Shown here piece after piece: positions 1,304-6,337 of a stretch of 6,337 nucleotides of DNA. The stretch comes from a virus (Duplodnaviria > Heunggongvirae > Uroviricota > Caudoviricetes). The position numbers and the translations under genes are program-made. Location of the stretch: the IMG/VR virus record IMGVR_UViG_2693429524_000012; one strand, given 5' to 3'. The notes under the pieces were generated by a model. The model had not been told where the DNA came from and did not search any database. It saw only the letters and a list, made by a program, of their open reading frames with translations. The stretch's first letter is position 1; the number at the start of each line of letters is the position of its first letter.

Positions 1304-1395
1304 AACAGTTCCGTAATAAATATCCGGTTTCATTCTTATATGCCAGCAATGGCAGGGATTTGTTCATCCTTAAATCTGTCATGAGGTTAAAACAA

Positions 1396-3867
1396 ATGAG
1401 TAAAGTCTTTATTTGCGCCGCTATTCCTGACGAACTGGCAACAAGGGAAGAAGGCGCTGTGGCTGTAGCCACAGCCATTGAAGCTGGCGACGAACGCCGT
1501 GCTCGAGCAAAATTTCACTGGCAATTCCTGGAACATTATCCGGCTGCTCAGGACTGCGCTTATAAATTTCTTGTCTGCGAGGATAAACCCGGTATACCCC
1601 GCCCTGCCCTCGATTCCTGGGATGCTGAATATATGCAGGAAAACCGCTGGGATGAGGCGTCTGCTTCCTTTGTCCCGGTTGAGACTGAATCAGATCCGAT
1701 GAACGTCACTTTTGACAAGCTGGCCCCTGAAGTACAGAACGCTGTCATGGTTAAGTTCGACACATGTGAAAACATCACCGTTGATATGGTGATTAGTGCG
1801 CAGGAACTGTTGCAGGAAGACATGGCAACATTCGACGGACATATCGTTGAAGCGTTGATGAAAATGCCAGAAGTTAACGCCATGTATCCGGAGCTTAAGC
1901 TGCATGCCATCAGGTGGGTTAAGCATAAATGTAAGCCTGGTGCCAAATGGCCCGAAATTCAGGCAGAGATGCGCATCTGGAAAAAACGTCGCGAAGGTGA
2001 ACGCAAGGAAACCGGAAAATACACGTCTGTTGTTGATCTCGCCCGCGCCAGAGCCAATCAACAGTACACTGAAAATTCAACAAGAAAAATCAGCCCGGTC
2101 ATTGCTGCCATTCATCGCGAATACAAGCAGACATGGAAAACACTGGATGACGAACTGGCCTACGCTCTCTGGCCTGGTGATGTGGATGCCGGAAACATTG
2201 ACGGCAGCATCCATCGCTGGGCAAAAAATGAAGTTATCGACAACGACCGCGAAGACTGGAAGCGTATCTCGGCATCAATGCGCAAACAGCCTGATGCCCT
2301 TCGCTACGACCGCCAGACTATTTTTGGCCTTGTCCGTGAACGTCCGATCGACATTCACAAAGACCCTGTGGCACTGAACAAATACATTACTGAATACCTG
2401 ACTACAAAGGGCGTGTTTGAAGATGAAGGAACAAATCAGAGCACAACTGATACTCTCTCGTCGCCAGTACCAGAAACTGATGCAGTGGAAACGGCAATTC
2501 CGGACAACGAAAAAACCGAATGCAAAGTGGAAATCGAACCATCTGTAGAGCGTGAGGGGCCGTTCTACTTCCTCTTCACCGACAAGGATGGCGAAAAATA
2601 CGGTCGCGCAAACAAACTTTCTGGTCTGAATAAGGCGCTGACTGCAGGGGCTACTGAAATCACGAAAGAAGAATATTTTGCCCGCAAAAACGGTACATAC
2701 TCAGGTTCACAACAAAATACTGGTGCATCTGACACGACCGCACAACCAGAGCCGGTAAAAGTTACCGCTGAAGAAGTAAACAAAATTATGCAGGCAGCCA
2801 ATATCAGCCAGCCTGACGCCGATAAGTTGCTTGCTGCCTCTCGCGGAGAATTTGTTGCAGGGATTAGCGACCCGAATGATCCGCAATGGGTGAAGGGGAT
2901 TGAAACCCGCGACTCTGCAAACCAGAACCAGCAAGAATCGGAACAGAACGACCAGAAAACGGAACAAAACAGCCCAAATGCGCAACAAAACGAGCCAGAA
3001 ACGAAACAGGTTGAACCAGTAGCGCAACAGGAGCCGGAAAAAGTCTGCACCGCCTGCGGTCAGACCGGCGGCGGCAACTGCCCTGATTGTGGCGCGGTGA
3101 TGGGCGACGCAACATACCAGGAAACATTCGATGAAGAGTATCAGGTTGAAGTTCAGGAAGATGATCCGGAGAAAATGGAAGGCGCTGAACATCCACACAA
3201 GGAGAACACTGGCGGCAATCAGCATCACGATAGCGATAATGAAACTGGCGAGACGGCAGATCACTCAATTAAGGTGAACGGTCATCACGAAATCACATCC
3301 ACCAGCAGGACGTGTGACCATCTAATGATCGACCTTGAAACCATGGGAAAAAATCCTGATGCCCCGATCATCTCAATAGGTGCAATATTTTTCGATCCGC
3401 AAACCGGAGATATGGGACCGGAATTTAGTAAGACTATCGATCTGGAAACTGCTGGCGGAGTCATTGATCGGGACACCATTAAATGGTGGCTTAAGCAATC
3501 ACGCGAAGCGCAATCTGCCATTATGACCGATGAAATCCCGTTAGATGATGCACTGTTACAATTGCGGGAATTTATCGACGAAAACTCCGGTGAATTTTTT
3601 GTTCAGGTCTGGGGAAATGGAGCCAACTTCGACAACACGATTTTGCGCCGTTCATACGAACGGCAGGGGATCCCCTGCCCGTGGCGTTACTACAACGATC
3701 GCGATGTACGCACAATCGTTGAGCTGGGGAAAGCCATAGACTTCGATGCCAGAACGGCTATTCCATTCGAAGGTGAGCGCCATAATGCACTTGATGACGC
3801 CCGTTACCAGGCAAAATACGTTTCAGTTATCTGGCAAAAACTGATCCCGAGTCAGGCTGATTTTTAA
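1396..3867 (+). CDS. Large prophage early-left protein (~823 aa): uncharacterised N-terminal region, Q/N/E-rich linker, CxxC-x7-CxxC zinc ribbon, C-terminal DEDDh (DnaQ/RNase T-like) 3'-5' exonuclease domain
   Basis: Long uninterrupted ORF; preferred start ATG 1396 (GAGG at 1384..1387, 8-nt spacer); alternatives are ATG 1381 and TTG 1360 (ORF-track start). DEDDh motifs are visible: Exo I MIDLETMG (3325..3348), Exo II WGNGANFDNT (3610..3639), Exo III HNALDDARYQ (3781..3810). Zinc ribbon CTACGQTGGGNCPDC at 3046..3090. It occupies the position of ydfE in Qin (truncated by IS2 in K-12) and of exo/recE in lambdoid phages. Confidence 0.85.
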   Translation: MSKVFICAAIPDELATREEGAVAVATAIEAGDERRARAKFHWQFLEHYPAAQDCAYKFLVCEDKPGIPRPALDSWDAEYMQENRWDEASASFVPVETESDPMNVTFDKLAPEVQNAVMVKFDTCENITVDMVISAQELLQEDMATFDGHIVEALMKMPEVNAMYPELKLHAIRWVKHKCKPGAKWPEIQAEMRIWKKRREGERKETGKYTSVVDLARARANQQYTENSTRKISPVIAAIHREYKQTWKTLDDELAYALWPGDVDAGNIDGSIHRWAKNEVIDNDREDWKRISASMRKQPDALRYDRQTIFGLVRERPIDIHKDPVALNKYITEYLTTKGVFEDEGTNQSTTDTLSSPVPETDAVETAIPDNEKTECKVEIEPSVEREGPFYFLFTDKDGEKYGRANKLSGLNKALTAGATEITKEEYFARKNGTYSGSQQNTGASDTTAQPEPVKVTAEEVNKIMQAANISQPDADKLLAASRGEFVAGISDPNDPQWVKGIETRDSANQNQQESEQNDQKTEQNSPNAQQNEPETKQVEPVAQQEPEKVCTACGQTGGGNCPDCGAVMGDATYQETFDEEYQVEVQEDDPEKMEGAEHPHKENTGGNQHHDSDNETGETADHSIKVNGHHEITSTSRTCDHLMIDLETMGKNPDAPIISIGAIFFDPQTGDMGPEFSKTIDLETAGGVIDRDTIKWWLKQSREAQSAIMTDEIPLDDALLQLREFIDENSGEFFVQVWGNGANFDNTILRRSYERQGIPCPWRYYNDRDVRTIVELGKAIDFDARTAIPFEGERHNALDDARYQAKYVSVIWQKLIPSQADF

Positions 3868-3882
3868 TGTTCAACCCTAATT

Positions 3883-3908
3883 GCCGCTAACCGTATATAG
3901 TTAGCGGC
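3883..3908 (+). promoter_or_regulatory. Perfect 9-bp-stem hairpin (GCCGCTAAC-cgtatata-GTTAGCGGC) between the exonuclease gene and xis
   Basis: Perfect inverted repeat at 3883..3891 and 3900..3908 with an 8-nt loop. There is no U-run after it, so it is unlikely to be a strong intrinsic terminator; it may be an RNA stability or processing element or a protein-binding site. Confidence 0.4.
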
Positions 3909-3925
3909 GGTTATGAGATATAGCT

Positions 3926-4129
3926 ATGAGCAACTTATTTTTAACCGAAGATGAATTGCTAATATTAACGGGCTGCAAATATGCAAGCCACCAGCGAAAA
4001 TGGTTAACGGAAAACGGGCTTCCGTTCTATACCAATCGTAGTGGCAAACCGATTGTCAGCCGGGATCTATTTACCTGCAATAAAACTTTACCACCACGCG
4101 AGGTAGAGCCGAATTTTGGTGCAATCTAA
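3926..4129 (+). CDS. xis: Excisionase-like small DNA-binding protein (DUF4224-type Xis), 67 aa
   Basis: 67-aa ORF directly upstream of int and translationally coupled to it (TAATG overlap at 4127..4131). The N-terminus MSNLFLTEDELLILTGCKYASHQRKWLTENGLPFY resembles the small helix-turn-helix proteins usually found upstream of lambdoid integrases. Function is inferred from position and general resemblance. Confidence 0.7.
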   Translation: MSNLFLTEDELLILTGCKYASHQRKWLTENGLPFYTNRSGKPIVSRDLFTCNKTLPPREVEPNFGAI

Positions 4130-5154
4130 TGGGAAGACGAAGGAAAAATCCTGAACACGAAAAACTACCTCCAAATGTATACCCAAATAAATATAGTTAT
4201 GTATGGAAACCAACATCCAGAGAATCTGTCACACTAACCGCCATCAAGGATGGTTTAGCTGCTTTATGGAAAAAGTATGAGGAAACTGTAAATAATCGCG
4301 ATCGTGCAATGACATTCGGTCGCTTGTGGGAAAAATTCCTCGCCAGCGCCTATTACAGTGACCTCAGTCCAAGAACACAAAAAGATTATCTGCAACATCA
4401 AAAAAAGTTGCTTGCCGTATTCGGTAAGGTGCCGGCAGATTCCATAAAACCAGAACACATCCGTCGATACATGGACAAGAGAGGGGAACAGAGTAAAACG
4501 CAAGCCAACCATGAAAAAAGCAGTATGTCCCGCGTTTACAGTTGGGGGTATGAGCGAGGGTACGTGAAGGCTAACCCATGTGCAGGTGTAAGTAAATTCA
4601 AGGCCAAAAACCGCGAACGATATGTAACCGACAAAGAATACCAGGCAGTATTAAGCGTTGCACCTCTTCCTGTTTTTATCGCAATGGAAATTGCCTATCT
4701 GTGTGCAGCGAGGGTTTCCGATGTGTTATCGCTGAAATGGGAGCAGATTGGAAACGACGGAATCTTTATCCAGCAAGGGAAAACAGGAAAAAAACAGATA
4801 AAAGCATGGAGTCCACGATTACAGGCGGCGATCGAAAAAGCAAAACAGTTACCAACATCCGCCTATGTAATCAGTAATCAATACGGCAACCGATATATGT
4901 ACAAAGGCTTTAACGAAATGTGGGTAGAAGCAAGAAATCGCGCAGGCAAAATTTCAGGTATTTTAACCGACTTCACCTTTCATGATCTGAAGGCGAAAGG
5001 AATTTCAGACTATGAAGGAAGCAGTCGGGATAAGCAACTTTTCTCTGGTCACAAAACCGAGGGGCAAGTGCTAATCTATGACAGGAAGGTTAAAGTTTCA
5101 CCGACACTTGATGTCCCGTTACCTGAAAATATTCCAAGAAAATATTCCAAGTAA
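4129..5154 (+). CDS. int: Phage integrase, tyrosine recombinase of the lambda Int family (341 aa); Lys found where catalytic Arg II is expected
   Basis: By-eye alignment with lambda Int catalytic regions: AARVSDVLSLKWEQI (Arg I), QQGKTGKK (Lys), FHDLKAKG (His present, Lys at 4990..4992 where HxLR Arg is expected), GHKTEG (His), LIYDRK (Tyr). The gene ends 49 bp from the 3' end of serU. Confidence 0.9.
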   Translation: MGRRRKNPEHEKLPPNVYPNKYSYVWKPTSRESVTLTAIKDGLAALWKKYEETVNNRDRAMTFGRLWEKFLASAYYSDLSPRTQKDYLQHQKKLLAVFGKVPADSIKPEHIRRYMDKRGEQSKTQANHEKSSMSRVYSWGYERGYVKANPCAGVSKFKAKNRERYVTDKEYQAVLSVAPLPVFIAMEIAYLCAARVSDVLSLKWEQIGNDGIFIQQGKTGKKQIKAWSPRLQAAIEKAKQLPTSAYVISNQYGNRYMYKGFNEMWVEARNRAGKISGILTDFTFHDLKAKGISDYEGSSRDKQLFSGHKTEGQVLIYDRKVKVSPTLDVPLPENIPRKYSK

Positions 5155-5161
5155 TTCCAAG
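5126..5161 (+). repeat. Tandem direct repeats AAAATATTCCAAG x2 plus a third TAATTCCAAG copy, spanning the int stop codon
   Basis: Perfect 13-bp units at 5126..5138 and 5139..5151, with a third ATTCCAAG at 5154..5161. Position at the int 3' end next to the tRNA/att junction is typical of integrase arm-type binding sites. Confidence 0.6.
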
Positions 5162-5203
5162 TGTGATTTTTGTCACTGACTTAATGATGTATAAGTGATT
5201 GAA

Positions 5204-5293
5204 TTTTGGCGGAGAGAGGGGGATTTGAACCCCCGGTGGAGTTGCCCCCACTCCGGTTTTCGAGACCGGTCCGTTCAGCCGCTCCGGCATCTC
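5204..5293 (-). tRNA. serU: tRNA-Ser (anticodon CGA), 90 nt with long variable arm and encoded CCA
   Basis: Reverse complement is GGAGAGATGCCGGAGCGGCTGAACGGACCGGTCTCGAAAACCGGAGTGGGGGCAACTCCACCGGGGGTTCAAATCCCCCTCTCTCCGCCA. Seven-bp acceptor stem GGAGAGA/TCTCTCC, anticodon loop CUCGAAA (anticodon CGA), class II variable arm, T-loop GGTTCAAATCC. The symbol follows from the anticodon and the adjacent mtfA. Confidence 0.95.
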
Positions 5294-5389
5294 TCCGTTC
5301 AGATGGTTGCCATGATGCCAGGAAATTTGGCATTTTAACAGTCCCTGTCCGTGCAATTTTGTTCAAGTGACGAGTTTGCGAGCAAAACG

Positions 5390-6187
5390 ATGATTAAGTG
5401 GCCCTGGAAAGTACAAGAATCAGCACATCAAACTGCCCTTCCCTGGCAGGAAGCACTATCGATCCCCCTTTTAACGTGTCTGACGGAACAGGAACAAAGC
5501 AAATTAGTCACTCTTGCCGAACGTTTTTTACAGCAAAAGCGGCTTGTTCCTTTACAGGGCTTTGAACTGGATTCATTAAGAAGCTGCCGGATAGCACTTC
5601 TATTTTGCCTACCCGTTCTGGAGTTAGGACTGGAATGGCTGGATGGTTTTCATGAAGTCTTAATTTATCCTGCGCCATTTGTGGTCGATGATGAATGGGA
5701 AGACGATATCGGTCTGGTGCATAACCAACGTATTGTTCAGTCAGGTCAGAGCTGGCAGCAAGGGCCTATCGTTTTGAACTGGTTGGATATACAAGATTCT
5801 TTTGATGCTTCTGGTTTTAACCTGATTATTCATGAAGTCGCTCATAAGCTGGACACCCGTAACGGCGATCGCGCCAGCGGAGTTCCCTTTATTCCGTTGC
5901 GTGAGGTTGCTGGCTGGGAACACGATCTTCATGCTGCAATGAACAACATTCAGGAAGAAATCGAATTGGTTGGCGAGAATGCGGCGAGCATTGATGCTTA
6001 TGCTGCCAGTGATCCTGCTGAATGTTTTGCCGTACTTTCTGAATATTTCTTTAGCGCCCCAGAACTTTTTGCTCCTCGTTTCCCTTCATTGTGGCAACGT
6101 TTCTGCCAATTTTATCAACAAGATCCTTTGCAGAGACTGCATCGCACTAATGATACAGACTCGTTTTCGGCGACGAATGTTCATTAA
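5390..6187 (+). CDS. mtfA: MtfA (Mlc titration factor A; zinc-dependent peptidase), 265 aa
   Basis: Product starts [28 protein letters not shown], contains the HEVAH zinc-binding motif, and is 265 aa, matching E. coli MtfA (YeeI). The ORF-track start at GTG 5351 is an in-frame upstream extension; ATG 5390 is the likely start. Confidence 0.95.
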
Positions 6188-6226: not shown

Positions 6227-6337
6227 TGAACCGCCCCGGGTTTCCTGGAGAGTGTTTTATCTGTGAACTCAGGCTGCCAGATCATCGTTTCCGATGGAAG
6301 CATAATAAGCTTTTTCTGCTTCTGCCGGAGGAGTATG
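6227..6337 (-). mobile_element. IS3-family insertion sequence (IS629-like), right end; element continues beyond the window end
   Basis: From 6227 the sequence reads TGAACCGCCCCGGGTTTCCTGGAGAGTGTTTTATCTGTGAACTC, an IS3-group terminal repeat related to the one at 71..124. The complementary strand encodes a transposase C-terminus. Same orientation as the copy at the window start. Confidence 0.8.
6269..6337 (-). CDS. IS3-family transposase OrfB, C-terminal fragment (partial; frame chosen by motif)
   Basis: Complement of 6272..6337 translates HTPPAEAEKAYYASIGNDDLAA followed by TGA (complement 6269..6271). The TP-x-E-x-E-K-x-YY pattern resembles the C-terminal tail of DDE transposases. A second frame is also open here, so the frame is uncertain. 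Confidence 0.45.
   Translation of the reverse strand, partial: HTPPAEAEKAYYASIGNDDLAA

Follow-up and report, generated by a model that had tools for sequence, protein, structure and literature searches.

What is the short, perfect tandem repeat that runs through the last codons of the integrase gene at the edge of this prophage: a row of binding sites for the integrase, a row of sites for some other protein, a signal in int expression, or a by-product of slippage that binds nothing?

A tandem array at the 3′ end of int

The DNA that we analysed, a stretch of 6337 bp hereafter called the window, covers the int side of a lambdoid prophage in serU, beside mtfA. Its int gene (4129-5154, + strand) encodes a lambda-type tyrosine integrase of 341 aa with the catalytic tyrosine at Y317 and a TAA stop at 5152-5154. 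Upstream of int are the genes for a 67-aa DUF4224 protein (3926-4129, + strand), whose counterparts in ST64B and mEp390 are annotated as excisionases, and for an Rv2179c-like exonuclease (1360-3867), together with dicB, the DicF RNA and ydfC. The DicF small RNA (701-752, + strand; Rfam RF00039, 76.7 bits) sits in the usual Qin/Rac-like block of ydfC (140-358), DicF and dicB (927-1115). Of 5426 complete E. coli genomes, 1092-1147, or about one fifth, have this int at serU; O157:H7 is among them, and there the serU prophage is CP-933U.

On either side the window ends in part of a multicopy insertion sequence of the IS3 family (1-124 and 6227-6337, in the same orientation), whose terminal repeats at 100-124 and 6227-6251 are seen as a 25-nt inverted repeat. 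From the N-terminus of its orfA product, MTKNTRFSPEVRQRA..., this element presumably resembles IS629/IS1203. One IS copy belongs to the prophage interior, on the upstream side of ydfC; the second follows mtfA at a distance of 40 bp. At the position of the mtfA-side copy, E. coli RM14723 has plain intergenic sequence, with tRNA-Asn about 60 bp further on, and the exact mtfA-IS junction was absent from all complete E. coli genomes in our collection.

Read directly from the window, the order at the end of int is ctgAAAATATTCCAAG / ...ctg, then AAAATATTCCAAG, AAAATATTCCAAG and TAATTCCAAG, then tgtga. The two 13-mers are both perfect (5126-5138 and 5139-5151, + strand, together 5126-5151), and the partial third copy TAATTCCAAG (5152-5161) opens with the int stop codon. 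Tandem Repeats Finder reported a period of 13 with 2.1 copies and 100% matches over 5125-5151, and an additional period-10 row over 5144-5162. We estimate the chance expectation for a perfect 13+13 tandem at about 1e-4 per such window (4^-13 per position), and the array was unchanged in an alignment of six independent E. coli lysogens; it is not a chance feature. A preliminary description of this DNA had reported two perfect tandem 13-mers and a partial third spanning the last int codons and the stop, some 45 bp from the 3′ end of a tRNA, and all of this was borne out, with the TAA inside the third copy and a measured distance of 45 bp.

Within the array, the 8-mer ATTCCAAG has exactly three perfect matches, which are also its only perfect matches in the 6337-bp window. 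Counting offsets from the centre of the tRNA anticodon loop at 5262, these candidate arm-type sites lie on the + strand at 5131-5138 in copy 1 (-131, P'3-like and furthest from the core), at 5144-5151 in copy 2 (-118, P'2-like) and at 5154-5161 in TAATTCCAAG (-108, P'1-like and nearest the core).

The att core lies in the 3′ half of serU

The tRNA next to the array is tRNA-Ser(CGA), serU (5207-5296, - strand), the 3′ part of which is supplied by the phage. A 62-bp identity block (5207-5268), reaching from tRNA position 29 to the 3′ CCA, is the same in attL, attR and attP and forms the att common core. Comparing attL and attR examples that come from different strains within the same lineages, we found the phage-type pair G..C at 5238/5249 in the attL of lysogens and the host-type pair A..T in empty sites and in several attRs. 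This difference, together with the end of attP/attB identity at 5268, places the strand exchange within 5250-5268, an interval that comprises the anticodon stem-loop (loop, 5259-5265). Crossover in the anticodon stem-loop is typical for tRNA-integrating lambda-like integrases. The preliminary expectation that the repeats could help to locate the att core was thus realised.

The serU gene itself is dimorphic in E. coli at 5238/5249 (tRNA positions 59/48, in the variable arm), where it has a compensating G..C or A..T. The phage-type pair also occurs in some empty serU sites (for example hit H39, 99% identical), which would fit past integration followed by an excision that left phage sequence behind.

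Between P'1 and the 3′ end of the tRNA is a spacer of 45 bp (5162-5206) that contains a palindrome and, at 5191-5202, the sequence ATAAGTGATTGA, which resembles host DNA just downstream of serU. We had considered the conserved TAAGTGnTTGAAT by the tRNA end as an IHF H' site and dropped it, since it resembles the host sequence downstream of serU (ATAAGTCATTGA in attB). The palindrome, TGTGA-N6-TCACT at 5162-5177, is near the CRP consensus and abuts P'1, the core-nearest site. At an equal offset it is partly kept in relatives of the serU(CGA) type (CGTGA-N6-TCACT in ST64B, CGTGG-N6-TCACA in locus L044), and it is absent from relatives of the Ser(TGA) type, which have the tRNA terminator hairpin in its place. 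An accessory factor may bind there.

The same motif occurs on the other arm of attP

The complete prophage of E. coli RM14723, an element of about 48 kb that is 100% identical to the window over 3900-5400, allowed the opposite arm to be read. Across the 49.9-kb RM14723 locus, ATTCCAAG has five exact matches, three at the int end and two at the other att site, within the prophage close to its far end and adjoining the 62-bp tRNA 3′ duplicate. The proximal copy is inverted and lies at +46 (P2-like), and the distal copy is direct and lies at +111 (P1-like). The preliminary description had proposed looking for further copies near the att sites of intact prophages, and here they were, 46 and 111 bp from the core. 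One motif, distinct from the core, is therefore present on both arms of attP, with three copies on P' and two on P in 49.9 kb.

The same confinement to attachment sites was seen in FORC 064, where all seven ATTCCAAG matches in 40.7 kb fall at att junctions. This strain carries two elements in tandem at serU (NZ_CP022664.1, 1950000-1990700), beginning with an 18-kb remnant beside the tRNA, which has three P' sites; an internal attP-like junction, where there are only two, separates it from a second prophage. The internal junction is a contiguous attP-like site and matches the attP that we had reconstructed. Two further phage-database records, ON470580 and ON470583, were considered as free attP and rejected, being prophage extractions that include host flanks.

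The P arm of an O157 lysogen is strongly diverged from that of RM14723, yet TTGGAATAAAT and AGAATATTCCAAGC are invariant within it, with changed flanks. Also retained, in three diverged P arms, is an IHF-consensus match at +22 to +34 (AATCAAAAGGTTA / AATCAAnnnnTTA); the 2.6 kb of the attP locus contain no other exact match to WATCARNNNNTTR. Another conserved island, GAAAAATCA at about +77, fits the IHF consensus in some alleles only, and no clear IHF site was found on the P' side.

Related integrases share the site geometry and differ in motif

Int relatives that are 47-65% identical to the window Int show the trio at -131/-118/-108, then an inverted copy at about +47 and a direct copy at +111, each with a motif of its own. 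Relatives in phage genomes, with Ints 48-62% identical, are ST64B, KpF5, Chris1, Evi, BUCT708 and mEp390; a lineage-specific motif stands at the -131 offset in ST64B, KpF5, Chris1 and BUCT708 as well as in many genome loci. To put the geometry on a footing independent of any chosen motif, we made a blind count of exact 8-mers in seven attPs, the window element included, against 500 block shuffles. The top 8-mer of these attPs fell at nearly equal offsets (-131/-118/-108, +46 to +48 inverted, and +110 to +112 direct), and its sequence differed by lineage, being ATTCCAAG, ATTCTAAG, TATACCAA, TTTTCTCA or ATGGCGAA. For five of the seven, the count was reached in no more than 4 of 500 shuffles; ST64B and BUCT708 were weaker, and in BUCT708 the P-arm copies are degenerate only. 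Counts allowing one mismatch were discarded as too noisy in AT-rich DNA, where AT-rich words won, and exact counts were used instead. Evi has its att site flipped relative to int, and its trio stays on the tRNA 3′ side.

A wider sample, with one genome per species, gave 80 further loci, 48 of which have a class-II tRNA (in one case tRNA-Cys) right after int. In 34 of these 48 we found a trio of 8-mers in direct orientation whose mismatches sum to no more than 4; all but one of the 34 beat 20 of 20 shuffles, and all but one are spaced by 13 + 10/11 bp. The other 14 loci lacked a trio within this limit of 4, and about 10 did no better than some of the shuffles. The trio keeps to about -131/-118/-108 at the 15 loci with a Ser-tRNA and at the one with tRNA-Cys, and the int stop lies anywhere from 107 to 477 bp from the core. 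Since the offsets stay constant whatever the distance of the int stop, the sites belong to the att architecture, and the overlap with the int stop codon appears incidental: the sites are fixed relative to the tRNA and not to the stop. In the Leu-tRNA branch, at Leu(TAA) loci, the trio is often further out, at -166/-153/-142, with the 13/11-bp spacing kept, and in mEp390 there are four sites in tandem; from branch to branch, then, both the count of P' sites and how far from the core they lie can change.

Which protein reads the motif

Arm-type sites call for an integrase with a DNA-binding domain besides those that act at the core, and we looked for one at the N-terminus of Int. Pfam and NCBIfam gave no confident assignment for this domain; the Pfam Arm-DNA-bind_1 family (PF09003) had a below-threshold match to residues 1-20 only (E = 0.016). 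For this reason we turned to a structure model. The AlphaFold model of Int (73 homologues, pLDDT 86.9) begins with a three-stranded sheet and a helix, and its best PDB matches in Foldseek were full-length lambda Int structures (1z1b_A, E = 8.6e-16, 345 aligned columns). In a phmmer comparison, Int aligned with lambda Int from residue 1 (MGRRR..LPPN.Y; E = 8e-13). On the model, Int carries a lambda-like N-terminal domain in addition to its core-binding and catalytic domains, and we delimit the predicted arm-binding domain to residues 1-60 (4129-4308, + strand; strands at residues 17-19, 23-26 and 34-38, helix at 39-58). At its other end, the conserved part of Int stops at ...SPTLD (residue 328), and the tails beyond it differ in every lineage. 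Here residues 333-341 (ENIPRKYSK) are encoded by the candidate arm sites, and the tail is predicted to be disordered, with pLDDT < 50 for 334-341.

The main competing possibility is that the repeats are read by the excisionase-like DUF4224 protein, or else by some other factor, accessory or from the host, in place of the Int N-terminal domain. The DUF4224 gene sits just upstream of int, and direct repeats in tandem, set roughly a helical turn apart, serve as excisionase sites in several systems, as at the lambda Xis sites X1/X1.5/X2. Xis sites, however, are confined to one attP arm, whereas the motif here is on both arms with one copy inverted, which is the pattern of lambda Int. Co-variation pointed the same way. 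Among 37 family members, the motif class was predicted by Int 1-60 with an AUC of 0.95, by Int 70-325 with 0.83 and by the DUF4224 protein with only 0.62, values that are descriptive, being computed over pairs that share ancestry. Motifs can differ even where the DUF4224 proteins are 93% identical, and conversely a shared motif can go with DUF4224 proteins of less than 40% identity. As for a host factor, its motif would stay constant from phage to phage. The comparison of sequences thus favours the Int N-terminal domain over the excisionase-like protein as reader of the motif, and we regard the competing assignment as decidedly improbable.

Positions and orientations are kept among related integrases, and the motif shifts with the N-terminal domain of Int. 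The ATTCCAAG trio at 5131-5161 very probably represents the P'3, P'2 and P'1 arm-type sites in the attL of a serU lambdoid prophage of the CP-933U/ST64B family. The preliminary description had suggested arm-type Int sites from the position of the repeats, and that suggestion now draws support from the copies on the other arm, the recurring five-site geometry, the co-variation with the Int N-terminal domain and the lambda-like fold.

The 13-bp tandem varies in copy number

The perfect 13-mer tandem is an unstable array, present in 1, 2 or 4 copies among E. coli. The two-copy form of the window is the majority form, matching most of 1147 lysogens at ≥95% identity; a synthetic query for the one-copy form matched about 110 genomes without gaps, and the four-copy form occurs in one genome. 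The Int tail changes accordingly, from ...ENIPSNSKCDFCH with one copy (344/345 aa) to ...ENIPRKYSK with two (341 aa), and four copies give a protein of 358 aa. Two O157 alleles differ by one SNP and a 13-bp indel, and the same is true of the window and the internal copy in FORC 064, a strain that holds both array lengths in one chromosome. The O157 and the window/FORC 064 backgrounds are 83 positions apart, so that the 13-bp change must have arisen at least twice. Two of the sites fall within this perfect tandem, and a slippage event therefore changes at one stroke how many sites there are and in which frame the Int tail is read.

Such instability could be all there is, the array being a mere tandem duplication made by slippage, a minisatellite at the 3′ end of int that binds nothing. 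The variable copy number speaks for this, as does its change on at least two occasions in int backgrounds 6% apart. The 8-mer, however, also stands singly at two fixed places on the other arm, where no tandem is involved and its copies are invariant within a diverged sequence, and relatives have three sites at equal offsets with imperfect flanks and different motifs. Slippage would account for the perfection of the array but not for the existence of the sites: copy number is polymorphic, but the motif is conserved outside the array at fixed offsets. We find this account, which is largely refuted by the P-arm copies, extremely hard to credit, and keep to arm-type sites that happen to lie in a slippage-prone tandem. 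Equally hard to credit is that the repeats act on int expression (as a terminator, in retroregulation or in programmed frameshifting) and not in recombination: although they overlap the stop codon and their copy number shifts the C-terminal reading frame, scanning the attP region for terminators and promoters gave no hit at the array (no G+C-rich hairpin with a T run), the relatives' trio lies 30 to 370 bp past the int stop and in Evi even beyond the att site from int, and the Int tail past residue 328 is unconserved and predicted to be disordered.

The common two-copy form has acquired a misleading label, since the frame in which the Int tail is read depends on the copy number. RefSeq/PGAP presents the two-copy int as a "frameshifted" pseudogene extended to the TGA at 5177-5179, and the one- and four-copy forms as intact. 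The label was on every two-copy lysogen that we inspected, the attL copy of FORC 064 among them. As the two-copy form has the family-wide three-site layout, the label is best read as an artefact, and RefSeq/PGAP probably mislabels about a thousand putatively functional int genes.

One-copy variants, with two P' sites, are present in many genomes, and three sites are therefore not strictly needed for a prophage to persist. A more speculative proposal, which we hold to be rather unlikely, is that the number of P' sites (2, 3 or 5) is a recurrently mutating, heritable setting of prophage mobility, changed by way of the 13-bp tandem. In lambda, P'3 is needed for integration and not for excision. 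If the proposal were true, then by analogy with lambda the one-copy alleles, which include many O157:H7 CP-933U prophages, would still be able to excise yet would be poor at integrating anew, and alleles with extra copies might show yet another behaviour. Slippage would then be switching a recombination site, and not a promoter or an open reading frame.

A model of the attachment site

We propose that the Int N-terminal domain (residues 1 to about 60) binds the ATTCCAAG sites, and that the core-binding and catalytic domains of the same protomers would bind the core, in the anticodon stem-loop, some 100-130 bp away. The full attP would extend from about -131 to +118, with P'3, P'2 and P'1, the 45-bp spacer and the tRNA 3′ half containing the core, followed by the IHF-consensus site at +22 to +34, the inverted P2-like site at +46 and the direct P1-like site at +111. 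DNA bends between the sites would build a lambda-type intasome for integration and excision and would set the direction of the reaction; we infer a part for IHF in this, and an allotment of individual sites to integration or to excision. The int reading frame, for its part, would simply run into the P' arm until it meets a stop.

The map gives this integrase family a concrete attP/attL layout, which places the core in the anticodon loop of serU and adds five probable arm sites and a likely site for IHF, and it covers both the effector-carrying O157 prophage CP-933U and Salmonella ST64B. It also corrects the annotation artefact by which the two-copy int is labelled "frameshifted". Ten or more natural arm-motif specificities appear to be set on one fixed geometry in this family, a variety that should be useful for learning how Int N-terminal domains read DNA and for designing orthogonal integration tools. 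The concept of arm sites is textbook knowledge. These particular sites appear undescribed in the literature that we searched, and the same appears to hold for the family-wide fixed geometry and for the slippage polymorphism.

Comparison with known systems

The lambda genome, examined as a control, has P1 direct, P2 inverted and P'1-P'3 as direct tandem sites spaced by 10 and 11 bp at the 3′ end of int, where P'3 (27806-27815) overlaps the int stop codon (27812-27814). The serU system resembles it in that a short motif, different from the core, is present five times, with three direct tandem sites about a helical turn apart beside the int 3′ end, the last reaching the stop, and with a proximal inverted and a distal direct copy on the other arm in the manner of P2 and P1. 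Further likenesses are the three-domain fold of Int, here as modelled, a candidate IHF-consensus site between the core and the proximal P-arm site, and an overall attP of about 250 bp. The two systems differ in motif (ATTCCAAG here, C/AAGTCACTAT in lambda) and in tandem spacing (13 + 10 bp against 10 + 11). The P' trio here lies 101-131 bp from the crossover as against 54-84 bp in lambda, a larger distance that arises because the phage carries the tRNA 3′ half between trio and crossover, and the P-arm sites are at +46 and +111 where those of lambda are at 102-111 and 133-142. Unlike lambda, moreover, this element targets a tRNA anticodon loop and has a DUF4224 protein where lambda has Xis as the adjacent small protein.

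Closer at hand, the O157 lysogens examined carry this very array in CP-933U/Sp14, and the ST64B record notes a similarity to CP-933U. The window Int is 59% identical to ST64B Sb28, and the two elements have the target tRNA and the site geometry in common. ST64B differs in its motif, TTTTCTCA, and in that its int stops before the sites, with a hairpin between.

The sublocation classes that Williams reportedly set out in 2002 for tRNA-integrating tyrosine integrases include an anticodon-loop crossover and are said to cover the core only. Our element is like that class in that it supplies the identity block, which extends from the anticodon stem as far as the 3′ end of the tRNA, and in the symmetric anticodon stem that flanks the presumed overlap region.

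In the literature searched we found no description of arm sites for serU elements, ST64B or CP-933U, and no binding or recombination experiment on the arm sites of this Int or its close relatives; a 2025 NAR paper reported in vitro recombination with ST64B IntA and defined no arm sites. For the IntS integrase of KplE1/HK620, attL arm-type sites are reported to overlap the intS promoter and thereby to give autoregulation (PMC2951348). The serU system is similar in that its recombination sites share DNA with features of the int gene, and different in that the overlap here is with the int 3′ codons and appears incidental.
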